From NCBI GenBank assembly GCA_016839605.1, contig JAEOTX010000234.1:1-16081 (forward strand): a stretch of 16,081 nucleotides of DNA. The letters are read 5' to 3'. The notes beneath the pieces are model-generated. The model did not search any database, had not been told where the DNA came from, and worked only from the letters and a program-made list of their open reading frames with translations. The position numbers and the translations under genes are program-made. Below are positions 791 to 16,081 of the stretch, piece after piece. The stretch is from Candidatus Thorarchaeota archaeon. GTDB lineage: Archaea > Asgardarchaeota > Thorarchaeia > Thorarchaeales > Thorarchaeaceae. Position 1 is the stretch's first letter; each line of letters opens with the position of its first letter.

Positions 791-1384
791 ATGTCACTTC
801 CTACTGGTGCAACTGTTGTCGGAATAAAATGCAGCGATGGTGCCGTTGTCGCAACTGATTCATTGGTCAGCTGGGGCACTTTCATACTCACAGACAAAGG
901 TGTCAAGGCATTCAAGCTGACTGACTCCATAGTCTTGGCCTCTGCTGGGCTCACGTCAGACTATCAGATGCTCGTGAATAGGCTTCAGGCTTATATCAAA
1001 CTCTACGAGCTTAATCAGAAGAAAGCCATCAGTGTTAAAGCCCTCGCCAAGATGATTGCCAATACTCTGTACCAGCAGAAGATGGCACCCCTCTATGTAC
1101 AGACTGTAATTGTTGGGGTGGATGATAGTGGTCCTGCACTCTATTCACTTGATATGGGTGGTTCACTCATTCCTGATGAGTACACAGCCACAGGTAGTGG
1201 GACACAGACCGCCTACGGTGTCCTAGAGAGAGATTACAAAGAAGGACTGACTGTCAAGGAAGCCGAGAAGATTGCAGTCACTGCAGTGAAGGCAGGGATT
1301 GCTAGAGATGCACAGTCTGGTGGGTCTATCCGTGTGATGACAGTAACAAAGGATGGGGTCACTGAACAAGTCGTCGATAACTAG
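791..1384 (+). CDS. psmB: Proteasome subunit beta, predicted non-catalytic (Thr1 replaced by Ala)
   Basis: MSLPTG|ATVVGIKCSDGAVVATD...K33...ATGSG...ARDAQSGG is the Ntn-hydrolase beta-subunit pattern. Start moved from 641 to ATG 791 because of the GGAGG SD and because 641-674 overlaps the NOG1 gene. Confidence 0.93.
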   Translation: MSLPTGATVVGIKCSDGAVVATDSLVSWGTFILTDKGVKAFKLTDSIVLASAGLTSDYQMLVNRLQAYIKLYELNQKKAISVKALAKMIANTLYQQKMAPLYVQTVIVGVDDSGPALYSLDMGGSLIPDEYTATGSGTQTAYGVLERDYKEGLTVKEAEKIAVTAVKAGIARDAQSGGSIRVMTVTKDGVTEQVVDN

Positions 1385-2646
1385 TGCGTGTGCATTGTTT
1401 GGGATCTCATCATTTGATTTTCCGCACTCATTCCTCTACACGATATAGCGTAGCAGCACTTCTTGGGTCCATAGAAACGGACCATCGCTTAGCCGAGCTT
1501 GAAGTAAGTGCACCTCTTGAGCTCTCAGATAACATGATTCAGCGAGTGGTTGACCGAGGAAGAGTTGTAATTGCTCAGTCAGTCATGAGTACACAGATTG
1601 ACCGAGTATTTCGTGAGAACAGAATGGTAAGGGATCGATTTGGTGACTCAGTCATACTTGTCGCGGGCGGGCCTCACGCAAGTGCAAGACCTAAGGAATT
1701 GCTAGATGCGGGCTTTGATTTTGTTGTGGTGGGTGAGGGAGAGAAGACGTTCAGGGATTTGATGTGGTGTTTGATCAATGATAATGATCCTGCAAATCTA
1801 GACGGCGTTGCTACGGAAGATGATGTTTCCTTCCCAAAGCCAAGAGACCTTCCGAAAGTTTCACTCGACGATTATCCCCCATTTGCATTGGGCATGAATA
1901 TACTTGGGCCGGTCGAAGTGACTCGGGGATGTCCATTTGCCTGCAAGTTTTGCTGTACGCCGTTTCTGACTGGCGGGGGTGTAAGACACAGGTCTGTGGA
2001 ATCGGTTATGCATTGGCTCAAGCAAGCTGTTCAGAAGAGTGGTTTCAGAAGAACATGGTTTCTCTCACCTAATGCCCTATCATATGGTGGAAAGGGACGT
2101 GATGTGGTCCCTGACAAGCTGGAACAGCTGCTAAAAGAGTCAACTGCGGTGGAGGGCCTTGAGGAGGTCTTCTTTGGGGCTTTTCCATCTGAGGTGAGGC
2201 CTGAATTTGTCAACAAGCCGATTTTGGAGATGATGCGAACCTATGTGGCAAATGACACACTCCAGATAGGGCTTCAATCAGCCAGTGACAAGGTTCTCGA
2301 ATACAGCAATCGTCATCATACTGTGAGTGAGGGGTTAAATGCAGTAGAGATCGCACTCGATTGTGGTTTCACGCCACATGTTGATATGATATTTGGACTT
2401 CCAGGTGAAACAAGGAAGGAACTAGATGATACTATAGACATGTGCCAGGCGCTCTCAGACTTGGGTGCAAGGGTCCATGGTCATGTCTTCATGCCATTAC
2501 CAGGCAGCAGTTTCGAGAACATGCCGCCCGGAAGACTGGACCAAGAAAGTAGAAGCACACTGGGAGAGCTTTCACGGAGAGGTGTTTTGACTGGGTCTTG
2601 GAGTAGCCAAGAGGGTCTAGCAGCAAGATTAGCTGCACCTGAGTGA
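1384..2646 (+). CDS. B12-binding domain/radical SAM protein (TIGR04013-like)
   Basis: N-terminal cobalamin-binding-type motif VAGGPHAS...VVVGEGE, followed by EVTRGCPFACKFC (CxxxCxxC), PSEVRPE and DMIFGLPGET. The GTG start overlaps the psmB stop. Confidence 0.85.
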   Translation: MRVHCLGSHHLIFRTHSSTRYSVAALLGSIETDHRLAELEVSAPLELSDNMIQRVVDRGRVVIAQSVMSTQIDRVFRENRMVRDRFGDSVILVAGGPHASARPKELLDAGFDFVVVGEGEKTFRDLMWCLINDNDPANLDGVATEDDVSFPKPRDLPKVSLDDYPPFALGMNILGPVEVTRGCPFACKFCCTPFLTGGGVRHRSVESVMHWLKQAVQKSGFRRTWFLSPNALSYGGKGRDVVPDKLEQLLKESTAVEGLEEVFFGAFPSEVRPEFVNKPILEMMRTYVANDTLQIGLQSASDKVLEYSNRHHTVSEGLNAVEIALDCGFTPHVDMIFGLPGETRKELDDTIDMCQALSDLGARVHGHVFMPLPGSSFENMPPGRLDQESRSTLGELSRRGVLTGSWSSQEGLAARLAAPE

Positions 2647-2717
2647 TGCAATGGCTATTGCCAAACGCTCATAAGACAGGTCCTCGGACTAGGCCCGAAT
2701 GCACCTTGAGTTCTGAC

Positions 2718-3677
2718 ATGCCTACTGAATTGAGAGAGAAGCTCAAACGGCAGGGGTATCATCTTCTTGGAGAGCGAGGAGCATTCAAAGCATGTCAGTG
2801 GCAGAGGAAGAGTCTGGTGCATGGAGATGTCTGCTATAAGCAGCGATTCTATGGAATTGAGAGTCATAGATGCCTGCAGATGACTCCAGTTGTTGACAAA
2901 TGCACTCAGAGCTGCGTTTTCTGCTGGCGAGTCACACCTGCAGATGTAGGTGTGAAATGGAATCAGACAGGTGTCACAAATGAGGGTGTGCTTCCACCGT
3001 CTGAATTGCTAGACCAGACCCTTATGGCCAACCTCAGGTCATTAGGTGGATACAATCCGGAAGTTGCCCCAAGTGTTTCCGCTGAGAAATATAATGAAGC
3101 CAGAGATCCAAAGCATCTGGCCATATCACTAGCTGGAGAGCCAACACTCTATCCATATCTAAGCGGACTCATTGATGAGGGGGAGCGCCGTGGTATGACC
3201 ACATTTCTTGTGACTAATGGAACGCAGCCAAAGGTGCTAGCTGAAATGTCACTCCCCACACAGCTCTATGTCACTCTAGCAGCACCCAATGAAGACGTCT
3301 ACAGATTGTTATGCAGACCGGGTGTGTCTGACGGTTGGAAAAAACTGAATGAAACACAAGAGTTGCTTCATTCACTCTCATGTCGACGCACGAATCGACT
3401 CACCATGGTCGAAGGACAGAACATGCATGGGGCTCGTTCCTATGCGGATATGATTCTGAAGGGAGAGCCGGACTTTGTTGAAGTGAAGGGCTTCATGTTT
3501 CTAGGCTCGTCAAGGGGAAGACTTGCCCAGGAAAACGCTCCCTCTCACCGAGAGATTCGTGCCTTTTCTGAGATGCTAGCATCGCTAACGGGGTATTATT
3601 TACAAGACGAGCAGATTGAAAGCAGAGTCGTTCTGTTAGCACGTAAGAAACACATAAAGAAGATTCACAATATTTGA
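2718..3677 (+). CDS. taw1: tRNA 4-demethylwyosine (imG-14) synthase Taw1/TYW1
   Basis: KACQWQRKSL, CYKQRFYGIESHRCLQMTP, CTQSCVFCWR, HLAISLAGEPTLYP, FLVTNGT, FVEVKGFMFLGSSR. Start taken as ATG 2718; the track start 2643 (GTG overlapping the upstream stop) is an alternative. Confidence 0.95.
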   Translation: MPTELREKLKRQGYHLLGERGAFKACQWQRKSLVHGDVCYKQRFYGIESHRCLQMTPVVDKCTQSCVFCWRVTPADVGVKWNQTGVTNEGVLPPSELLDQTLMANLRSLGGYNPEVAPSVSAEKYNEARDPKHLAISLAGEPTLYPYLSGLIDEGERRGMTTFLVTNGTQPKVLAEMSLPTQLYVTLAAPNEDVYRLLCRPGVSDGWKKLNETQELLHSLSCRRTNRLTMVEGQNMHGARSYADMILKGEPDFVEVKGFMFLGSSRGRLAQENAPSHREIRAFSEMLASLTGYYLQDEQIESRVVLLARKKHIKKIHNI

Positions 3678-5774: not shown

Positions 5775-6200
5775 ATGCAAAGAGTGAGGTTTCGGGCCTG
5801 TGGACATGCAAATGTGATTGGGGAACACAGGACTACGGTAGAGATTACCACTGAAGACTACCTTACTCAAGAGGGTACTTGCATCATAGGGATTCGAGCT
5901 GACCAAGCATTGAATGAGGTACCCGATGAAATCAAGGCACTTGCAGCGTCAGAGAAAACCAAGATCATTCTGAAACTGAAAGCAGGTAATCTTACAGAGG
6001 CGGTAACAGGGAGAGGGAATCCAGGGCTCACATATTCAGATGCGGTCAGCATGGTGGCAAGAAAGAGCTCATTTGTCTGCGATAGGACTCTTATGGTAGG
6101 TGCTGACAAGGCGGCTTCTGATCTGGACCGCTCGTTTGTTGATGCCTTGAAGGATTCTAGTGCGTCAATAGAGTGTGAGCTACTCTTTGTCACTGAATGA
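5775..6200 (+). CDS. DUF371 family archaeal protein
   Basis: GHANVIGEHRTTVEIT, LTQEGTCIIGI, VARKSSFVCDRTL and ADKAASDLDR are typical DUF371 motifs. Confidence 0.88.
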   Translation: MQRVRFRACGHANVIGEHRTTVEITTEDYLTQEGTCIIGIRADQALNEVPDEIKALAASEKTKIILKLKAGNLTEAVTGRGNPGLTYSDAVSMVARKSSFVCDRTLMVGADKAASDLDRSFVDALKDSSASIECELLFVTE

Positions 6201-7260
6201 CTACATCCGCAACCATCTGATACTCATAGGGGGCGCTATCGCGCACTCTACGGATAGTTTCAATCCGAGCTACTTCTCTGCCACTCTCGTTGACAAGACC
6301 GGTAATCTTCTCGGTCAGGCTGCCCTCGGGGTCTTCTCCGCCCATGAATTCGTAGTAGTGCATGACTCCCTCGGGTTTTAGAGCCTTACAAGCATCCCCG
6401 ACAAACTCGAATGCTCCAGCTGGGTGATTCATGATCACACGATCGACATCACCATCAAAGCCGCTCTGGATGTATTCGTGGGTATCTCCAAGTATTGGTA
6501 TGACTTCTCCAGCAAAACGATTGAGTTCCAAGCTCTCTTGAAGTAGGTCGATAGCATCTGGGTTGATGTCTACTGCGTAGACTTTGACTCTATGTCGTCT
6601 TGCGATATGCAACGCAAAGGGTCCAACTCCAGTGAACATGTCTATGACCAATTCACCATCTGTAGCTAAATCGGCTATTCGATTGTGCTCCTCAAGCAGC
6701 CTTGGGCTGAAGTAGGCTTTAGCAACATCTACAGCAATTCTGAGATTATACTCGGTGTGAATTGTCTTTGTCTTATTCTGACCTGCAAGAATATCGTATT
6801 GCCGGACCCGTGTTGTTCCAGATATTGGGCCCCTCTTACCAAGTACCGTGTTGAAATTCTTGTGAACTGTCTTTAGAGCGGCGCCAATCTGCCTTGCGTA
6901 GTCCGTGAGCTCGTCAGGAATCTCAATGACTGCTATGTCCCCAACCAAATCATACGCACGTGGAAGTAATTCAAGTAAATCAGAAGGAATCAGACCCACA
7001 AGCGCTTCTGAGAGTGTTTTTGGACCCATAAAGACTGGTGTGAACTCGCGTTTTCCAACCTCGTATTTGATCTTCCCAAGGATCTTCTTGAGGCCCTTCT
7101 CTGTCTTCTTCTTGGTCAATGGGAAGTACAGCCAGTCTTCGTCTTTTGCTATCTTGCACTCAGTATCTAGAAGTTTCGCATCAATAAGGGCCTGTCTAGC
7201 CTTCTCTCCATCACCCACGTTTGTTCGCACGAAAGGTCTATCGAACGACACGGGTATCAT
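6190..7260 (-). CDS. trm5: tRNA (guanine37-N1)-methyltransferase, Trm5 family (with N-terminal D1 domain)
   Basis: RAYDLVGDIAVIE, TIHTEY, KAYFSPRL, VIDMFTGVGPFAL, AVDINP, RVIMNHP, MHYY, VRDSAP. Overlaps DUF371 tail-to-tail by 11 bp. Confidence 0.9.
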   Translation of the reverse strand: MIPVSFDRPFVRTNVGDGEKARQALIDAKLLDTECKIAKDEDWLYFPLTKKKTEKGLKKILGKIKYEVGKREFTPVFMGPKTLSEALVGLIPSDLLELLPRAYDLVGDIAVIEIPDELTDYARQIGAALKTVHKNFNTVLGKRGPISGTTRVRQYDILAGQNKTKTIHTEYNLRIAVDVAKAYFSPRLLEEHNRIADLATDGELVIDMFTGVGPFALHIARRHRVKVYAVDINPDAIDLLQESLELNRFAGEVIPILGDTHEYIQSGFDGDVDRVIMNHPAGAFEFVGDACKALKPEGVMHYYEFMGGEDPEGSLTEKITGLVNESGREVARIETIRRVRDSAPYEYQMVADVVIQ

Positions 7261-7317
7261 TTAGCAAGCGTTCCTAATGAGTCTGGTTGTCGAGGGTATG
7301 CAGCAGTTGCACTAACC

Positions 7318-7360
7318 TTGGACAAAGTTGGACAGGTGCTTATATAGTTCAAATTGGACA
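7318..7360. promoter_or_regulatory. TATA box flanked by three TTGGACA direct repeats
   Basis: TTGGACA at 7318-7324, 7328-7334 and 7354-7360. CTTATATA at 7339-7346 is usable on either strand, for trm5 or for the + strand transcript. Confidence 0.55.
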
Positions 7361-7364
7361 GCAT

Positions 7365-7605
7365 GATGTAGAGGTGGTCAATGACAAGAACCACGTCAAT
7401 GAACTGACTCTACAGTCGCCGCGAGTTGCACGGAAACAGAAAACGCCTGTGGAGAGGACGTAAGACGTCTTGGTAAATCCTCCGAGATTTGTGTGATGCT
7501 GCTTCGATGAATCAGGAACCGAACATCGATTATGGAACGTTATGTCCAAGTCTGTATAAGTTTCGGGCAACGGGAAGGATTATCATCAGGCAAAGACGCG
7601 ACATC
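7365..7605 (+). ncRNA. Candidate structured RNA (ncRNA or long 5' leader), family not recognised
   Basis: No credible protein in the 366-bp gap between trm5 and the likely NTase start. It begins ~20-25 nt after the TATA box. Hand-found helices cover most of the stretch: 7367-7373/7408-7414, 7374-7378/7390-7394, 7395-7398/7405-7408, 7425-7435/7561-7571, 7436-7440/7551-7555, 7455-7461/7465-7471, 7473-7479/7486-7492, 7504-7509/7524-7529, 7415-7419/7598-7602. Confidence 0.45.
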
Positions 7606-7626
7606 TCCGCAGCAGGGGTAGCAATA

Positions 7627-8706
7627 TTGCCTGGACAAGAACACACACTTCGAGACCGTGATCTTATACTCACAGAACCTGGAATCTTCTTTCGGGTCTA
7701 TGGTTATTGGCACCCATCTTCTGGGTACGTCTGTGACCCTGAATATGTCCCGATGTCAATATTCAACACAGAGACCCTGCTTGAACAACGAATCAGGAAG
7801 AAGGGATATTGTAAGTTCTATGGCTCGGAGGGTATAGAGTTTGTCACAGAGAAGTATCCCCAATTCATGGTCCCGTATCCACCACTTGATACAATCCTCG
7901 TTGGAGTGAGGCACTCTGACGTTGAAAGGGAACTGAGAACAGACGTGCGTCTGAGAGAGATGCTTGAATCACCGCCGGATGACCTCCTCGCAGGCCTCCT
8001 AGTTGAACTCATTGACTTTCTTCTTGATAACACGTCTATCAGAAAGTCGGACTTGGGGATATTTGGGAGCCTCCTTGCTGGCATATACCACCCTCAGTAC
8101 TCAGACCTAGATATCACAGTCTATGGAAAGGACACATTTGAGAAACTCAGACCCTATCTGATGGAGTGGTACTCTGAGCCTGATGGATATCTTGCCAATG
8201 AGTTCATTGTAGAGGTGCAGCAGTTTCTTGACAAGCCCTCACCCTTCACTGCAATAACTCGAGAAGAGATAATCGCGCATCATCGTCGAAAGGGAATCTA
8301 TGGGATACTCCCTGGGGCAAGAGACCCATTCCTCAAGGTTGAGTTTGAGCCCATCCGGAGATTTGACGAGATTGATAATCTAGCAGAGGATGCCACAATG
8401 ACCCCTAGTGACAGAATCACGGTCCGGGCACGCATCACTGAGCATGATAATGGGTACTACATGCCTAGTGAGTATGGAATAGAAACAATCGAGGTCCTTG
8501 AGGGGGACACAAGTGCCTCTCCCACGAGGGTCCTCAACTATATTGAACAGTTCAGGATGATGGCCTTCAAAGATGAAGAAGTAATAGTTTCAGGGGTGCT
8601 CGAGCATGTTGAACGAAGAAACACCGAGTACGATCAGATAACACTGAGCTATCCACTTGGATGGGAGGCAAACGTCCTCAAGACGATAGATGCAGTGGAA
8701 TTCTAA
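7627..8706 (+). CDS. Pol-beta-superfamily nucleotidyltransferase, COG1665-like; catalytic motif intact
   Basis: LRDRDLILT..G..FRVYGYWHP N-terminus. GIFGSLLAG...SDLDITVYG gives the GS + DxD motif (DxD at 8104-8112), with KVEFEP as the candidate third acid. The C-terminal part is beta-rich (OB-like). Start placed at TTG 7627 behind AGGGG, giving 359 aa, similar to the paralog; the track start is 7489. Confidence 0.75.
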   Translation: MPGQEHTLRDRDLILTEPGIFFRVYGYWHPSSGYVCDPEYVPMSIFNTETLLEQRIRKKGYCKFYGSEGIEFVTEKYPQFMVPYPPLDTILVGVRHSDVERELRTDVRLREMLESPPDDLLAGLLVELIDFLLDNTSIRKSDLGIFGSLLAGIYHPQYSDLDITVYGKDTFEKLRPYLMEWYSEPDGYLANEFIVEVQQFLDKPSPFTAITREEIIAHHRRKGIYGILPGARDPFLKVEFEPIRRFDEIDNLAEDATMTPSDRITVRARITEHDNGYYMPSEYGIETIEVLEGDTSASPTRVLNYIEQFRMMAFKDEEVIVSGVLEHVERRNTEYDQITLSYPLGWEANVLKTIDAVEF

Positions 8707-9791
8707 TCCTCTTTGACCAGTCTGATGAACTCTTTCCCAGCTCCTGCCTTTGAGCCCACCATCATTTGATAGAAGACCTCATCGTTCGGATCACTCGGTG
8801 TCACTTTCTGAGTGATGCCAGATGCCTCTACCGTATCTCCTTGTCTAATGAGACCTCTAAAGGACCCTTCATAGACCATAATTCTGGTTATGTGTCCGCT
8901 ATCGATTATATCCAGTGATTCAGACCTGCTCTCATAGAGCGCAGGGATAAACAGACCATAGGTGTCATTGGTAATCTCCATCTTCACTCGAACAGGAGAA
9001 GGCGTGACAGTAGTATACGATTCGCTCCCATGCGTGATTGGAGCTTCCTCTGGGAGTAGAATTGGCATTACTCCAATGGATCGCTCATTGCAAAGAAGCC
9101 CCATTCTCCTTGTGAAGAGAGTCTTCATGTCCTCTAATGGTATCACAGGTATACGCTCTACAACCCTAGACATAGTTCGTTTCCACTCATGCATCTCCCG
9201 AAGACGCATGTGGGTGTTCTGTTCAGCCACAGTTTTGTATTCTTTCTGTAGATGCCAAGCGGTTTCGAAGCCGTAGATGTTCATGTTGATGTCAGAAAAA
9301 CTAGGGTCGTGTGCCTTCCATGCAACGCTGCCCGTAACCCCCAGCCTCTCAAGGGGGATTCCAAGTGTATCATGAAGAGTCTGAGCCATCAAAGCCACGC
9401 TTTCCTCAAGAGGGTCTCTTGCCTCAGACTCAAGTATCTCCTTCACCCTAATCTCAGGACTGAAGTATTTCTGAACATCAGTCTTAGGAACTTCGAGTAG
9501 TTTTGTACCGAAGTGGGCATCGTCAACAAGGTAGTCCTCTTGCGCCTTCTTCATGCCCTCCGTCGCTGACACTCCTCCTCCCCAGAAGATGCGCTTGTAT
9601 CTCTGACCGTGGGCCTGCCACTGACCGTCTGGATGTGGTATGTATTTCAAAAATGAGAGTATCCTGTCTGTTGGTTGGATGTATCCCAGTGTGACATAGA
9701 CCCTCCCGTTTGAATCATGGATTACATCACGGTCTCTAACAGCGTCGGGTAAGTCTACCAGTGCAGGTTGGTTAACATCTGTCAGTTTCAA
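8703..9791 (-). CDS. COG1665-like nucleotidyltransferase paralog with degenerate catalytic motif
   Basis: VRDRDVI...YVTLGYIQP...LKYIP, LGVTGSVAW...SDINMNIYG (DxN), GDTVEASG. Same domain layout as 7627-8706. TTG start with upstream GAGG. Confidence 0.75.
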   Translation of the reverse strand: MKLTDVNQPALVDLPDAVRDRDVIHDSNGRVYVTLGYIQPTDRILSFLKYIPHPDGQWQAHGQRYKRIFWGGGVSATEGMKKAQEDYLVDDAHFGTKLLEVPKTDVQKYFSPEIRVKEILESEARDPLEESVALMAQTLHDTLGIPLERLGVTGSVAWKAHDPSFSDINMNIYGFETAWHLQKEYKTVAEQNTHMRLREMHEWKRTMSRVVERIPVIPLEDMKTLFTRRMGLLCNERSIGVMPILLPEEAPITHGSESYTTVTPSPVRVKMEITNDTYGLFIPALYESRSESLDIIDSGHITRIMVYEGSFRGLIRQGDTVEASGITQKVTPSDPNDEVFYQMMVGSKAGAGKEFIRLVKED

Positions 9792-9850
9792 TCGCAGGTT
9801 CCTCGTTAGATAGATTAGGGGCTCATGTTTGAAGCAGGTTGGGAGTACGA

Positions 9851-11065
9851 ATGAAGATTCTCCATCTTTGTGACAGCCTTAACCCTGCCGGTCTTGGAGG
9901 GTACGAGTCTATTATTCATTACCTGTCAAAAGCCATGACAGCAGAGGGACATGAGTCATTTATTGCAACACAACCACCCTATCGTAACTCTCCGGAAGAG
10001 ATCCAGAAACAACACTATACCATATTTCATTTACCAGGCAACTTACTTGAGGCTAGAAAGTGGGAGTTCTATGCGCTACCCGAAGATGAGAGAGAAGAGG
10101 CAGCTGGAAAGCTGTTCAAGCCCAATGACGTTGGTGAGAATGTAGGTATACTCACAGACCAGCTTGTCAGACTCATTCATGAAATTCAACCTGACATCAT
10201 CCATGCACACAGCACGTACGTGGTCTTTAACAAAGTGATTACGAAACTACGGTTGCTCTCCGAGCTGGAGATCCCAGCTATTGTTACGATTCATGGATTG
10301 CCTAAGCCCCTCATCCTACCAAGTGGGAAAGAAACGACAGACTTCAAGGAGTTCACCTCGGACTTTGGATTTGATCTTGTTATAGCGGTCAGCGAGAACG
10401 TTGCTGGAGCCATCAAGGAACATCTAGATTCGGATTTTCATGAGAGAGTTCGAACGATATACAGTGGTATTGACCTGTCTGTTTTCAGGCCTTTACCGGA
10501 TGTAGACAAACAATGGGACTTGGCATTCATGGGTCGGCTTGAGGCAATGAAATCTATAGACCTGTTTCCAGAGATGTTGTCCCTACTAAAGCCCAAGTTT
10601 CCTGATCTCAGGATGATGATGACGGGGGAGGGGTCACTCAAGGACTGGCTATTCAAGGAGTTTGAGAAGGAAGGTGTATCATCCATGGTAGACTACCAGG
10701 GAGTCGTTGAAACTGATGATGTCCCTGCTCTGATCAACAAGAGTCGAGTCTTCCTCTATCCATCTAGACGAGAACCCTTTGGGCTTTCTATTATCGAGGC
10801 GATGGCCTGTGGCGTCCCCGTCATAACTACGGATGTTTTTGGTCCACGAGAGATAGTCAAGCATAACTATGATGGAATTGCAGTGTCGCCTGATGATGTT
10901 AGAGCGCTAGCTGATGCGGTTGAAACTCTCTTGTCAGATGATGACCTTTGGAAAAAAATTGCACAAAATGGTCTCAAGTCTGTTGCGGAGAGATATGACA
11001 TCAAAGAACATGCAAAGCAGCTAGTGACAATCTATCAGGAAATGATTGACAGAGGAAAAAAATGA
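9851..11065 (+). CDS. Glycosyltransferase family 4 (GT-B)
   Basis: MKILHL...GGYE, PDIIHAHS, TIHG, IAVSE, IYSGID, FMGRL..MK, EPFGLSIIEAMACGVPVI (EX7E). ATG 9851 follows a GGGAG SD. Confidence 0.92.
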   Translation: MKILHLCDSLNPAGLGGYESIIHYLSKAMTAEGHESFIATQPPYRNSPEEIQKQHYTIFHLPGNLLEARKWEFYALPEDEREEAAGKLFKPNDVGENVGILTDQLVRLIHEIQPDIIHAHSTYVVFNKVITKLRLLSELEIPAIVTIHGLPKPLILPSGKETTDFKEFTSDFGFDLVIAVSENVAGAIKEHLDSDFHERVRTIYSGIDLSVFRPLPDVDKQWDLAFMGRLEAMKSIDLFPEMLSLLKPKFPDLRMMMTGEGSLKDWLFKEFEKEGVSSMVDYQGVVETDDVPALINKSRVFLYPSRREPFGLSIIEAMACGVPVITTDVFGPREIVKHNYDGIAVSPDDVRALADAVETLLSDDDLWKKIAQNGLKSVAERYDIKEHAKQLVTIYQEMIDRGKK

Positions 11066-11936: not shown

Positions 11937-12743
11937 TTAGAACAGACTGAACGGCGCAAATGGCCAGTATAGACCAAGGAATGGTAGCAGTAGTATCATT
12001 ACAATGGCAGCAATGGTGATGGTCAGATTATCAAGCCCCTTGGGAGTAATGGCCTCTACAATGGTGGCAACAAGACTCACTACCAAAATCGGTATGAATA
12101 GGTCTATGACTGAGAATGTCGTTACTTCCAGCGAGAACAGGAACACCAGAATAGTGCTGAACAAGACAGAGCCTATGAACATCCCTATCACGCCAGCCAA
12201 AGTCTTCTCAGCACCGCCAATTCCAAACTTCTTGTCACCGCCATACTTCCGTCCTATCACGTCAGCGAAACCATCGCCTCCAGCCAGACATCCAAAGACA
12301 ATCAGTGCTAGTGGGGTGGCATTGGCTAAGTTCCCATCGGTAGGAACATAGAACCAAAGGATAGCAATAATCACCATTAGGGTTGCATAGTAAAGTGTAC
12401 CTCCGAGCAGCTCTTTGGGATCTCCAGACCTTGACATTGATCCGACAAAGTCCTCATTGATCATCTTTCCAGTGCCAATAGCCACAAACAGGATGACAAA
12501 GAGCAGTGGTGCAATCATTGCCAGCCAACGACTGAAGACTCCACCAGAAAAGAGCATCCAAGTGACTACCCACAGTGGGGCTGCGAAGGTGTGAATGACT
12601 TTCCGTGTTACAGTAGTTGAGAGAGCTCCGCTCTTCTCAATTCTAGCATTGATCTGGACAAGCATCAGTATCAAAAAGAACGAGATAATGAATGCGATAA
12701 CATCCCAGACCAGCTCTAGACCAGGTAAAGGATTGAATACCAT
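11937..12743 (-). CDS. CTP-dependent membrane prenol kinase (phytol/farnesol/dolichol kinase family)
   Basis: Multi-TM protein with RKVIH, SMSRSGDPKELLGGTLYY (resembling plant farnesol/phytol kinases), GDGFADVIGRKYG, KTLAG and DNLTI. ATG 12743 has a GAGGAG SD and a TTTAAA box near 12769-12775. Confidence 0.82.
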   Translation of the reverse strand: MVFNPLPGLELVWDVIAFIISFFLILMLVQINARIEKSGALSTTVTRKVIHTFAAPLWVVTWMLFSGGVFSRWLAMIAPLLFVILFVAIGTGKMINEDFVGSMSRSGDPKELLGGTLYYATLMVIIAILWFYVPTDGNLANATPLALIVFGCLAGGDGFADVIGRKYGGDKKFGIGGAEKTLAGVIGMFIGSVLFSTILVFLFSLEVTTFSVIDLFIPILVVSLVATIVEAITPKGLDNLTITIAAIVMILLLPFLGLYWPFAPFSLF

Positions 12744-12822
12744 AATCAATCTCCTCGGATTGAAGGGTTTTAAAAGGACTCATTCTGCTCACCTAAAAGT
12801 CTGTTGAGAAGATGATGAGCGA

Positions 12823-12867: not shown

Positions 12868-13515
12868 CTAGAGGTCCTTTTTGCAGAACCACCAATCTGT
12901 GCAGTCGTAGCCCTCTTTGAGACGCTGCTCTGCATCGGCCTTGGTCTTTGGAGGTGGGACAATCACCTTATCGCCTGGTTTCCAGTTAGCTGGAGTAGCG
13001 ACCTTGTGCTTGTCAGAGGTCTGAAACGCATCAATGACTCTCAGAATCTCAGCCATGTTTCGACCATTGCTCAGTGGATAGTAGATCAATGCCCTCAGCT
13101 TGAACTCGGGGTCAATGAAGAACACTGCTCTTACTGCAGCTGTCCCACTCTGAGCGGGATGTATCATTCCGTACTTCTTAGCAACATTCATACTGAGATC
13201 TTCGATGATTGGGAATGGAATCTCAGTTCCGAACTTCTCCTTGATTGTACTAATCCAAGATATGTGGGAATAGATACTGTCAATACTTAAGCCTAGCAGC
13301 TTGACGCCCCGCTTCTCAAGTTCGGGATAGATTTCTGTAAATCCAATGAACTCGGTAGTACAGACAGGGGTAAAGTCTGCAGGATGACTGAACAGAATCA
13401 CCCAGCTCCCTTTGGCCCATTCACTGAACTTGATTGTGCCATCTGTAGTAGCCGCTTCAAAATCAGGTACTTCTTCTCCAATAAGGAGCATTCGTCGTTC
13501 TTCTTGTGCTTCCAT
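12868..13515 (-). CDS. Peroxiredoxin, Prx6/archaeal TDXH type
   Basis: LFSHPADFTPVCTTEF, AVRAVFFIDP, YYPLSNGRN, ATPANWKPGD, and C-terminal CTDWWFC with two extra Cys. Start moved to ATG 13515. Confidence 0.95.
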   Translation of the reverse strand: MEAQEERRMLLIGEEVPDFEAATTDGTIKFSEWAKGSWVILFSHPADFTPVCTTEFIGFTEIYPELEKRGVKLLGLSIDSIYSHISWISTIKEKFGTEIPFPIIEDLSMNVAKKYGMIHPAQSGTAAVRAVFFIDPEFKLRALIYYPLSNGRNMAEILRVIDAFQTSDKHKVATPANWKPGDKVIVPPPKTKADAEQRLKEGYDCTDWWFCKKDL

Positions 13516-13545
13516 TGTAACAAATCCTTGAAATTTGAACATAAT

Positions 13546-13611
13546 CAATAATGATTATTATTTAAGTATTATGCTCCATAAAGTTTAAATCGCTAATAAT
13601 AATCTTTATTA
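13546..13611. promoter_or_regulatory. Divergent promoter with two Fur/Per-box-like 7-1-7 operators
   Basis: CAATAAT-G-ATTATTA (13546-13560) and TAATAAT-C-TTTATTA (13597-13611), each with one mismatch from perfect symmetry. TATA-like elements at 13559-13566 (-) and 13584-13590 (+). Confidence 0.7.
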
Positions 13612-13634
13612 CAATATGTAACCTGAGAGGTACT

Positions 13635-14066
13635 ATGATGAATCTTAGACTGGACGTGGCATCAGTTTTGAGGAAGAATGGACATCGTGCAACTCCTCAA
13701 CGACTTGCAATATACGAAGCCATTTGGAATGCAGGGGACCATCCAACAGTGGATAAGATTCACAGCTCAGCCATAGAAAGGGATCCTACAATTAGCCTAG
13801 CTACCGTCTATAAGGCACTTAGGCTCTTCACTGATATCGGACTTACAAGAGAGATGGCCTTTAGAAAGGAATCAACACGTTATGATCCTGTTGTGGACGA
13901 GCATGTCAACCTAGTATGTAACAGTTGTGGAGAAGTTGAAGACTTCAAATTTAATCCAATCGAGGGGCTAAAAGCCGCGATAGAGAATCGAACAAAATTT
14001 CAGGTCCGTGGACAGAGTTTTGAGGTCTATGGACTCTGTTCTAATTGCAAAGCAAGAATGGAATAG
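13635..14066 (+). CDS. Fur-family transcriptional repressor, PerR-like
   Basis: RATPQRLAI, HPTVDKI, ISLATVYKAL, RYD...HVNLVCNSCGEVED, YGLCSNC (two CxxC). Divergent from the peroxiredoxin gene. Confidence 0.9.
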   Translation: MMNLRLDVASVLRKNGHRATPQRLAIYEAIWNAGDHPTVDKIHSSAIERDPTISLATVYKALRLFTDIGLTREMAFRKESTRYDPVVDEHVNLVCNSCGEVEDFKFNPIEGLKAAIENRTKFQVRGQSFEVYGLCSNCKARME

Positions 14067-14728: not shown

Positions 14729-16081
14729 TCACATTATCACCAGGTAGTATGATCCTGGCTGTAGAGTCAGTGAATAGTCACTGCCAGCAATGGTCAGGTC
14801 TCTTGGTGTACCATCTCCATATACTGTGGGAGTTGAGTCAAAGTTGCTGAATGTCAGAGTGGCAGCTTGGTCCACCTTGATGTTCAGAACAAAGCCCTCC
14901 TTCACGGGATCCCACTCAGCCTGATACACCCAGATGTTCTCATCGTCAGCCTCGTTTATGTATGGGTAGTCCCAGAATGCTGCTGGCCGTGGTACAACTA
15001 GGTCATTCAGCGTAACTGGATTGGTTCCCCATATCCATCCGTATGCTATGCTAGTCTGAAGGAATGGTTCCAGACTTGATGTGTCCCAGTGCATCTCCCG
15101 ACCATCTGCAGACCACACCTTGTTGTACAGACCGGAGAGGAAATTCAGAATCCTCTGTACTGTGTTGAAGTCACCCTCTTGTTTGGAGAGAGCAAGCGTG
15201 AACAAGCAGGCCAGAAACTCGAATGTGCCAAAGTTGCTGGTAGAGTACATCGAGTCAACGAAGTACATCTGGTCTCCAGATAGCTCTTTGCCGTACTGCT
15301 CAATGAACACTGAGTAGTCCTCATCGGTCACTTCTGGTTGAAGGAAGTCCATGAACTCCAGAGACCATGCAACCCCATAGCCTCGAGACCTCAGATTCCC
15401 CTCTGTGCTGAATGGTGAGAGACGGTTACCAGGGAACTCCTGTTGAGGCCCCTCCGTTGGTTGTTGAAAACCAAAGGGCTCCTGCACAAAGTAGCCATCA
15501 ACATAGAGGTCATACTGATCCTGCATGATGGTATTTGCAAAATTGAGTCCATAGTCCCAAATCGGCATGTAGTTAGTAGAATACATATTATCATAGAGTC
15601 CTGTTGCATACACTGGGATGCTGTTACACTGGACCCAGACTTCGTAGGGTTCACAGGGTATGAGACCGCATTCCCAGATGCCTCCCTCTTGAGGATTACC
15701 AAAGCCATCTGTAGTCAGAGAGTTGTTCCAGTCTTCAACATAGTAGGTGATCTCATCAACGAACTCTCCAGTGTTGAAGTTCCGCTCATGGAAAAGCTCC
15801 ATCAAGGCATAGTGTCCAGTCCACATGATGTTGGCAGGGCCTCTCCACCCACCTGTATAGATATCGTCAGCATCGGGAGTGAATGTGTCAGGATAATAGT
15901 ACCCTGTCCAGTTCTGTGTAATCGAGGCGTATTCCCATTCGAAATACTCAATGGAGTCATTCCCCCAGTCAGCAACAGATGTATTGAACTTCCTGATCAG
16001 ATTATCAGAAATCTCTTCGTAATAGCTTGTTCGGTAACCAGGAGTTGTTTCATAGTACATAGCCAGAGAATATGCCATGAA
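14729..16081 (-). CDS. Linalool dehydratase/isomerase-like protein (5' end outside the window)
   Basis: FMAYSLA, ANIMWTGHYALM (NIMWTGH at 15812-15832) and IPCEPYEVWVQCNS (CEP...QC at 15626-15655) parallel the Castellaniella defragrans Ldi motifs NIMYKGHLNLM and VCEPDNYFVQCNS, as recalled. The frame stays open to the window edge (TTC precedes ATG 16078). Confidence 0.75.
   Translation of the reverse strand, partial: FMAYSLAMYYETTPGYRTSYYEEISDNLIRKFNTSVADWGNDSIEYFEWEYASITQNWTGYYYPDTFTPDADDIYTGGWRGPANIMWTGHYALMELFHERNFNTGEFVDEITYYVEDWNNSLTTDGFGNPQEGGIWECGLIPCEPYEVWVQCNSIPVYATGLYDNMYSTNYMPIWDYGLNFANTIMQDQYDLYVDGYFVQEPFGFQQPTEGPQQEFPGNRLSPFSTEGNLRSRGYGVAWSLEFMDFLQPEVTDEDYSVFIEQYGKELSGDQMYFVDSMYSTSNFGTFEFLACLFTLALSKQEGDFNTVQRILNFLSGLYNKVWSADGREMHWDTSSLEPFLQTSIAYGWIWGTNPVTLNDLVVPRPAAFWDYPYINEADDENIWVYQAEWDPVKEGFVLNIKVDQAATLTFSNFDSTPTVYGDGTPRDLTIAGSDYSLTLQPGSYYLVIM

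Follow-up and report, generated by a model that had tools for sequence, protein, structure and literature searches.

Genes and features of the locus

The stretch of DNA analysed here, hereafter called the window, is 16,081 nt long and comes from contig C189 of a Thorarchaeota-type Asgard genome whose assembly is 80% complete. Its interval 7318-11065 carries a gene for a Pol-beta-fold nucleotidyltransferase (NTase), which we call A, a convergent gene for a paralog of the same size, B, and a GT4 glycosyltransferase gene, preceded by a non-coding sequence. A sequence-only reading had joined these into one candidate system, a ribonucleoprotein or RNA-controlled unit in which a structured RNA upstream of A serves an active/inactive NTase heterodimer, possibly together with GT4. 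Our analysis leads to another interpretation, to which we assign a probability of roughly 0.7: the interval holds three unrelated things, namely a transposon-derived mini-element, one alpha and one beta member of an archaeal NTase family, and a syntenic GT4 gene, and does not constitute an RNA-protein system. The features concerned are the following, with clades as defined further below.

6190..7260, minus strand: Trm5b-type tRNA (m1G37) methyltransferase, the ancestral downstream neighbour of B
7297..7573, plus strand: non-autonomous IS200/IS605-family (tnpB-only, IS1341-like) mini-element, 277 nt, beginning after AGGG and ending in ...CAACGG
7340..7347, plus strand: TATA box of the left end of the element, kept in the left ends of the copies on contigs C28 and C229 and of an insertion at an unrelated site in genome G012
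7412..7573, plus strand: right end of the element, an omega-RNA-like scaffold, homologous to the last ~135 nt of tnpB plus the sequence beyond
7579..7619, plus strand: candidate native promoter and leader of A, with an ATTATCA box at 7579-7585 and a GGGGT Shine-Dalgarno-like motif at 7615-7619
7627..8706, plus strand: NTase A, alpha clade, 359 aa, GS...DLD; AlphaFold2 model with a predicted local distance difference test score (pLDDT) of 91.9
8703..9791, minus strand: NTase paralog B, beta clade, 362 aa, GS...DIN; AlphaFold2 model with a pLDDT of 94.8
9851..11065, plus strand: GT4 glycosyltransferase, Pfam Glycos_transf_1, E 3.8e-41

The layout described by the sequence-only reading is correct in most respects. 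The TATA box (TTATATAG) is found at 7340-7347, there is no conserved coding sequence from the Trm5b start at 7260 to the TTG codon at 7627 (7261-7626 being intergenic), the stop codons of A (TAA) and B (TAG, on the opposite strand) overlap by 4 bp at 8703-8706, and the GT4 gene, which runs divergently from B, begins with the ATG at 9851, 59 nt away from position 9791, where B starts. However, the upstream sequence is not densely pairable as had been claimed, the minimum free energy of 7366-7590 being -59 kcal/mol, compared with a mean of -58.5 kcal/mol for shuffled sequences (z = -0.12).

Origin of the sequence upstream of A

We aligned the Trm5b-A spacers of 11 genomes of the window's genus (g1), and a later search added those of G011 and G002, giving 13 orthologous spacers in total. 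Eight of the 13 harbor no insertion and are only 83-89 nt long; these short spacers hold two conserved blocks, CCTAATGAGTCTGG near Trm5b and GGA(A/T)TATCATC about 45 nt ahead of the start of A. In the window and in its nearest relative, G001, an insertion of 259-277 nt lies between the two blocks, and an insertion at the same site is also present in G011 (92% identity) and, in a diverged form, in G002 (70%); identity to the window copy is 88-92% in G001 and G011. A different insertion, of 176 nt, is found elsewhere in the Trm5b-A spacer upstream of the A ortholog in G012 (L012, G012:C45). It has a similar left end (TTGGACAAAGTTGTACAGGTGCTTATAT), follows CAGGG and has the terminus ...AACGG, and it probably represents a second mini-element family with the same ends.

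Searches of the window's own genome with BLAST and nhmmer recovered four further copies of the element, on contigs C28, C229, C45 and C84, so that there are five copies in all, the one in the window being 68-86% identical to the other four. The copies on C45 and C84 correspond to the last ~135 nt of intact genes encoding 410 and 428 aa, plus the sequence just 3' of these genes. Since the two genes carry HTH_OrfB_IS605, OrfB_IS605 and Cas12f1-like_TNB domains, we identified them as tnpB. The copies on C28 and C229, on the other hand, are short and gene-less, like that in the window. All five end in ...GGGCAACGG, which reads GGGGAACGG in the two full-length copies and over the copies in this genome follows the pattern ...GTTTCGGG(C/G)AACGG, and their flanks diverge right after it. 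Four gene-less, independent insertions start directly after AGGG and show no target duplication beyond a 2-nt ambiguity (GG), which also applies to the boundaries given for the window element. Their left ends have CAG(C/T)TGC, TTGGACA and a CTTATAT(A/G) box in common, and the full-length copy on C45 has a CTTATAA box about 35 nt ahead of the tnpB ATG. When 16 copies from six genomes were compared, we found long invariant blocks and consensus helices with compensatory changes in 6 of 23 pairs, and one variable hairpin stays paired in all 16 copies despite quite different sequences; it is by comparison only, and not in the fold of the single sequence, that a candidate structure of the element becomes visible. 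The genome also contains nine TnpB-type genes and one degraded fragment, while a search of its 80%-complete assembly for a Y1 TnpA (Y1_Tnp) found none. The window copy is without a tnpB open reading frame (ORF) and is therefore a non-autonomous derivative, in which a frame relic of about 50 codons is left. An Rfam search over the whole window returned no match at E <= 1, and a tRNA/tmRNA scan of the window found no such gene.

This relic bears on the start of A. The frame that runs from 7489 into A reads ...SMNQEPNIDYG, compared with ...SAKQEPNISPR in the C-terminal tail of TnpB (MNQEPNIDYG in the window resembling AKQEPNISPR), and because of this match we consider the apparent N-terminal extension of A to be a relic of the tnpB frame. 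Protein-level conservation of an extension from 7489 or 7507 would have counted against the sequence-only reading, but the extension is not conserved at that level; a longer A from either position was rejected, as relatives do not conserve the extension and it derives from the tnpB frame. We placed the start of A at TTG 7627, since close relatives carry Met at exactly that column and distant homologs begin about five residues ahead of the conserved LRDRD motif. This bears out the start taken in the sequence-only reading.

In TnpB systems, the omega (right-end) RNA covers both the tnpB 3' end and the right end of the transposon, with the guide located just outside the element. Given this established layout and the homology described above, we interpret 7297-7573 as a non-autonomous mini-element with an omega-RNA-like right end. 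What had been taken for a dedicated upstream RNA is thus very probably the relic of a TnpB-type transposon. In one sub-lineage, the element would have landed after AGGG, within the short spacer between Trm5b and A and immediately ahead of the ATTATCA box of A. Its left end would retain a TATA box of its own, and its right end, which overlaps the tnpB 3' end in copies of full length, would encode the omega-RNA scaffold; transcription from the element's TATA box may yield an omega-RNA-like transcript or may read through into A. In G071, a genome from another genus (L133, G071:C16), a 406-aa ORF that is TnpB zinc-finger/RuvC-like (46% over 41 aa, E 1e-9) lies between B and Trm5b. It seems that IS605-family elements have landed repeatedly in the B-Trm5b spacer.

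The motif GGA(A/T)TATCATC is present in all spacers of the genus, with or without the element, and is located downstream of the insertion point; to judge from the sequence, the ATTATCA box region at 7579-7585 would be the own promoter of A. This matters for two possible uses of the mini-element. In this sub-lineage it may have been recruited to give A an additional promoter or a long 5' leader that alters the expression of A, or it may be an active omega-RNA gene in its own right, serving the genome's TnpB proteins in trans with a guide from the A promoter region. The left-end TATA box does face A, the right end abuts the ATTATCA box, the element has been kept at the high identity noted above in G001 and G011, there are nine TnpB genes in the genome, and the blocks of the omega-RNA scaffold are invariant over the 16 copies. 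However, the conserved promoter-like box of A and its GGGGT Shine-Dalgarno-like motif are intact downstream of the insertion, and conservation among close relatives may just mean that the insertion is recent. We therefore regard such a use of the element as unlikely, though it is the most serious of the alternatives considered here.

A four-clade family of archaeal NTases

The assignments of A and B made from the letters of the window were borne out. A is a Pol-beta-fold NTase with the signature GS...SDLD and matches Pfam NTP_transf_2 with 24.3-24.6 bits (cut-off 21), as do 54 of 119 family members. B is a paralog of the same size with GS...SDIN, aligns collinearly with A over ~345 residues at 24% identity (E 3e-16), and has no NTP_transf_2 match in Pfam. 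The GS motif reads GIFGS in A and GVTGS in B, and neither its G nor its S varies in alignments of 119 and 96 sequences. As to the acidic residues, the [DE]x[DE] pair is kept in A (SDLD), in all alpha, alpha' and gamma members and in most beta members, and a third one, an invariant Glu (E285 in the 405-aa reading of A, within KVEFEP), aligns with LPEEAP of B.

According to AlphaFold models of high confidence, A and B share one architecture, with a Pol-beta palm between an N-terminal domain and a C-terminal OB fold. The palm of A (residues 116-243) resembles the terminal uridylyltransferases (TUTases) TUT7 (Z 7.7, root-mean-square deviation 3.1, 92 aligned residues) and TUT1 (Z 6.7), Z scores of a size that the search tool calls common. 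The predicted OB fold of A (residues 258-359) resembles SSB/MCM-N with Z 8-8.7, and is also close to RPA and to the anticodon-binding domains of aminoacyl-tRNA synthetases (aaRS), the range over SSB, RPA and aaRS being Z 7-8.7. No structural match was obtained for the N-terminal domain, which bears an invariant RDRD motif. Searching the PDB by sequence, using A, B or the family profile as query, gave spurious matches only (nanobodies and designed helical proteins), Foldseek against the PDB gave only weak OB-fold rows (E >= 0.01), and NCBIfam has no family for A or B. Likewise, none of A, B, the gamma paralog introduced below and GT4 matched a PADLOC defence profile at E <= 0.01; a reading as a defence NTase (CD-NTase/CBASS or MNT-HEPN) was dropped on this result.

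A profile search indicated that the family comprises ~1,300 clusters at 50% identity, nearly all of them of 330-370 aa, and 252 homologs were found for B. The source taxa include Thorarchaeota, Bathyarchaeia and Methylarchaceae. The clusters are named only "hypothetical" or "predicted nucleotidyltransferase", and the ESM Atlas returned only unnamed archaeal clusters. The phylogenetic tree of 203 members from the fetched loci resolves four clades with clade-specific motifs:

Clade alpha: FGS...DxD; the member in the window's genome is A
Clade alpha': HGS...DID; no member in the window's genome
Clade beta: TGS...; the member in the window's genome is B
Clade gamma: SGS...DID; the member in the window's genome lies on contig C205, 47707-48816

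We take the family to be ancient and archaeal, with four clades and a three-domain architecture. Within it, the Asp-to-Asn change pointed out in B is real and fixed: DIN or DVN occurs in every scored sequence of the B clade (73 scored by pattern and further ones by eye), and every sequence of the A clade has DxD. Outside the Thorarchaeota family, however, nearly all beta members keep DxD, and in the 203-member tree DIN is seen only in B of the window and in G057. This Asn, which B carries throughout the Thorarchaeota family, would make B a non-catalytic or altered subunit.

Members of the family do occur as paralog pairs, so that the pair idea of the sequence-only reading survives at the family level. 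Asgard genomes have alpha'-alpha and gamma-beta operons with intergenic gaps of -100 to +81 nt, and Bathyarchaeia often have clusters in the order beta(-) alpha'(+) alpha(+) gamma(-), in which alpha and gamma stand tail to tail, often with a 4-bp overlap. Because of these operons and clusters, we consider alpha with alpha' and beta with gamma to be the normal pairs of the family. For B itself, we would give about even odds that its ancestral and likely partner is the gamma paralog (DID) on C205 of the same genome, and not A.

History of A, B and their neighbours

Orthologs of B were found in 15 of the 16 genera of the Thorarchaeota family, the exception being genus g12. In 14 other genera B occurs without A, and there it is located directly upstream of Trm5b. 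Trm5b follows B on the same strand in 17 of the 18 other Thorarchaeota-family loci: in 16 of the 18 loci from other genera it comes directly after B, with a gap of -47 to 90 nt, as it also does in G003 of the window's genus, and in the 17th (G071) the TnpB-like gene mentioned above stands in between. On the other hand, A orthologs with >80% identity are confined to genus g1, where 13 of 16 genomes have them, always convergent with B; the next-best relatives of A are 49% identical (metagenome-assembled genomes of Hermodarchaeota/Thorarchaeota), followed by those of Bathyarchaeia at ~40%. Since B directly precedes Trm5b elsewhere and the A orthologs are limited to g1, we consider A to be a later insertion between B and Trm5b. 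It would have been inserted tail to tail with B within one genus, without its usual alpha' partner, and indeed no alpha' was found in the window's genome or in its single-contig relative. A second partial-Trm5b-A-B block, in an unrelated neighbourhood, is present in a closed Thorarchaeota chromosome (L059, CP070658.1 1210144-1227220), the A and B of this second copy being 81% and 68% identical, respectively, to those of the window.

Consequently, A is not supported as the specific partner of B: B is found without A in 14 other genera, the pairs seen elsewhere are beta-gamma and alpha-alpha', and most beta members outside the Thorarchaeota family retain DxD. A narrower version would be that A and B form an active/inactive heterodimer, independent of any RNA, in genus g1. 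All 13 genomes of the genus that have A show A and B tail to tail with overlapping stops, the partial-Trm5b-A-B block was duplicated as a unit in the closed genome, A is without its usual alpha' partner in the genomes of the genus (the single-contig assembly included), and in Bathyarchaeia, too, alpha lies convergent to another paralog, in many cases overlapping it by 4 bp. However, B predates the arrival of A and occurs with gamma and without A in 14 genera, and beta pairs with gamma elsewhere. This heterodimer appears doubtful to us.

The membership of GT4 in a common system did not withstand comparison. GT4 is present at 11 of 18 loci inside the Thorarchaeota synteny block, compared with 0 of 20 Asgard pair loci and 1 of 66 alpha loci, its adjacency being confined to that block. 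Of the genomes in which Trm5b comes directly after B, 11-12 have GT4 divergent from B. GT4 is a syntenic neighbour only.

Gene context and possible role of the family

In distant lineages, the neighbours of the family point to one-carbon (C1) cofactors. Gamma-beta pairs are found in strings with GCHY-1 (an MptA-type GTP cyclohydrolase), a protein with Pterin_bind, DUF6513 and DUF4346 domains, and a flavoprotein+4Fe4S protein. The Bathyarchaeia clusters adjoin a CitG homolog and FwdDBA, or else Ftr, creatininase-family, asparagine-synthase-like and flavoprotein genes. Within 8 kb of the alpha loci, CitG is present in 20 of 66 and Ftr in 14 of 66 cases; CitG lies within the same distance in 2 of 20 Asgard loci, and Ftr directly abuts the NTase pair in two Asgard genomes. 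Among 61 Asgard genomes, which are mutually related and to which no formal co-occurrence test was applied, 44 have both the family and Ftr, eight the family only, three Ftr only, and six neither; G027, of genus g12, has neither family members nor Ftr. The recurrence of C1-cofactor and CitG neighbours therefore suggests a role of the family in methanopterin/methanofuran biosynthesis, which is our best current guess but a tentative one, based on gene context.

CitG/CitX chemistry consists of an alpha-ribosyl transfer from ATP followed by the NTase-type formation of a phosphodiester, and the methanopterin tail is a ribosyl-phosphate-hydroxyglutarate, which chemistry of the CitG/CitX type would fit. 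By gene context, the family would carry out a nucleotidyl- or phosphoribosyl-type transfer that builds the phosphodiester in the side chain of a C1 cofactor. In a more specific and still more speculative form, the NTases of the four clades, as alpha/alpha' and gamma/beta heteromers, together with the CitG-like protein, might be the missing enzymes of the ribosyl-5-phosphate/hydroxyglutarate tail of methanopterin; the beta subunit of Thorarchaeota would then be a fixed DxN, non-catalytic partner of gamma, and one genus would have added a solo alpha.

Several observations weigh against a role in C1-cofactor synthesis. The eight genomes just mentioned have the family and no detected Ftr, and conversely genus g18 (G038, G049 and G059) has one or two copies of Ftr and no family member by profile search, in genomes of 1.3-1.4 Mb that are 93-98% complete, one of them closed. 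The adjacency counts include many interrelated Bathyarchaeia loci and are therefore not independent. The window has no C1-cofactor gene beside A and B, and the CitG gene of its genome is unlinked, on contig C218. A comparison of the family profile with E. coli CitX by hhalign gave a probability of 0.9%, with a single-sequence template that limits sensitivity, and a literature search on the A/B family found nothing relevant. Finally, a TUTase-like palm combined with an OB fold resembling those that bind single-stranded DNA or RNA would also suit a nucleic-acid substrate.

The last point leads to the alternative that the family acts on RNA, for example in the nucleotidylation of tRNA 3' ends or small RNAs, instead of on a cofactor intermediate. 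In addition to the structural likeness of the palm to TUT7 and TUT1 and of the OB fold to SSB, RPA and the aaRS anticodon-binding domains, it could draw on the same-strand position of Trm5b after B throughout the Thorarchaeota family, and on the presence of Taw1 3.5 kb away. However, the adjacency to Trm5b does not extend beyond one family-level synteny block (0 of 20 and 0 of 66 loci elsewhere), the recurrent neighbours in distant lineages are C1-cofactor genes and CitG, and Z scores of 7-8 fall in the range called common by the structure-search tool. An action on RNA is, in our view, improbable.

Other genes of the window

The gene order of the window begins with NOG1 GTPase, a proteasome beta subunit, a B12-radical-SAM protein, Taw1 and a translin-like protein, continues with a CTP-dependent riboflavin kinase, PCMT, a DUF371 protein, Trm5b (-), A (+) and B (-), and ends with GT4 (+), isopentenyl phosphate kinase, a gene without assignment, a peroxiredoxin and a PerR-like regulator. 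Trm5b matches Pfam TRM5-TYW2_MTfase with E 2.6e-43 and NCBIfam Trm5b with E 1.3e-77, the latter under the NCBIfam cut-off. Taw1 (the wyosine radical-SAM enzyme), the B12-binding radical-SAM protein and Trm5b are all located inside 6 kb (1384-3677 and 6190-7260), and this block, which is syntenic across the Thorarchaeota family, amounts to a loose neighbourhood for tRNA-G37 modification. Immediately downstream of isopentenyl phosphate kinase, 11937-12749 (minus strand) encodes a 270-aa protein with no Pfam or NCBIfam match that stays beside this kinase in many Thorarchaeota genomes (61-85% identity) and might be a partner in the mevalonate pathway. The peroxiredoxin and the PerR-like, Fur-family regulator form a divergent pair at 12868-14066, in whose shared spacer the GC content dips locally to 39%. 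At 14729-16078 (minus strand) lies a gene for a 449-aa protein with only a faint Pfam match of the linalool dehydratase/isomerase type and 50-58% identity across the family.

Overall interpretation

The notion of an upstream RNA dedicated to an active/inactive A:B heterodimer, as its substrate, template, scaffold or riboswitch-like leader, has in its favour the succession of a TATA box, ~280 nt and the A gene in one orientation, an element of this type at exactly the same site in four genomes of the genus, and the OB fold and TUTase-like palm of A, but we consider it highly improbable. Eight of the 13 orthologous A genes have no upstream element, which tells against the notion by the refuting condition that the sequence-only reading had itself named, and none was seen at alpha loci outside the genus. 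The sequence belongs to a dispersed repeat that derives from IS605/TnpB and shares homology with tnpB 3' ends, and its single-sequence fold is no better than those of shuffles. Our main result is accordingly a negative one: the apparent RNA-enzyme system dissolves into a transposon relic and neighbouring genes. It also carries a warning, since TnpB right ends with their omega-RNA scaffolds can pass for dedicated leaders. At the same time, the analysis draws attention to a sizeable, uncharacterised NTase family which, given its gene neighbourhoods in other archaea, could be tested for a part in those steps of C1-cofactor synthesis that are still unassigned. The Thorarchaeota lineage offers a natural experiment in this respect, with a subunit in which an Asp-to-Asn change has become fixed and an alpha copy without its usual partner.

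Comparison with known systems

Among Pol-beta NTases, A is typical in its GS motif, its DxD pair and a later acidic residue, and its predicted palm superposes on TUT7. The family differs from them in its specific N-terminal RDRD domain combined with a C-terminal OB fold and in having no solved relative by sequence, and B differs further in its DxN and the absence of a Pfam match. Inactive subunits of the Pol-beta fold are known as pseudo-NTase partners, for example the DZF-domain proteins. B is similar to these in that one catalytic Asp is fixed as Asn in a full-length, well-conserved protein that has an intact sister gene; unlike them, it keeps the GS motif, the first Asp and the later Glu, so that a residual or altered activity is possible.

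The likeness to the CitG/CitX and MdcB/MdcG systems consists in a CitG-like gene that many loci of Bathyarchaeia and some of Asgard archaea have near the NTase-fold paralogs. However, CitX is without the OB fold and the N-terminal domain of the family, and CitG is unlinked in the window's genome. The likeness is thus one of possible mechanism, not of family membership.

The mini-element, finally, compares most directly with the tnpB-only members of IS200/IS605 (the IS1341 type). It differs from these in that the window copy is without a TnpB ORF and has no Rfam match, and in that the 80%-complete assembly yielded no Y1 TnpA. In other respects the agreement is close: the right end in the window shares homology with the tnpB 3' end and what follows it, the copies have a conserved terminus, differing flanks and apparently covarying RNA/DNA hairpins, the element adjoins a short, constant motif (AGGG) and shows neither inverted terminal repeats nor any evident duplication of the target, and intact TnpB genes with the same right end are present in the window's genome.

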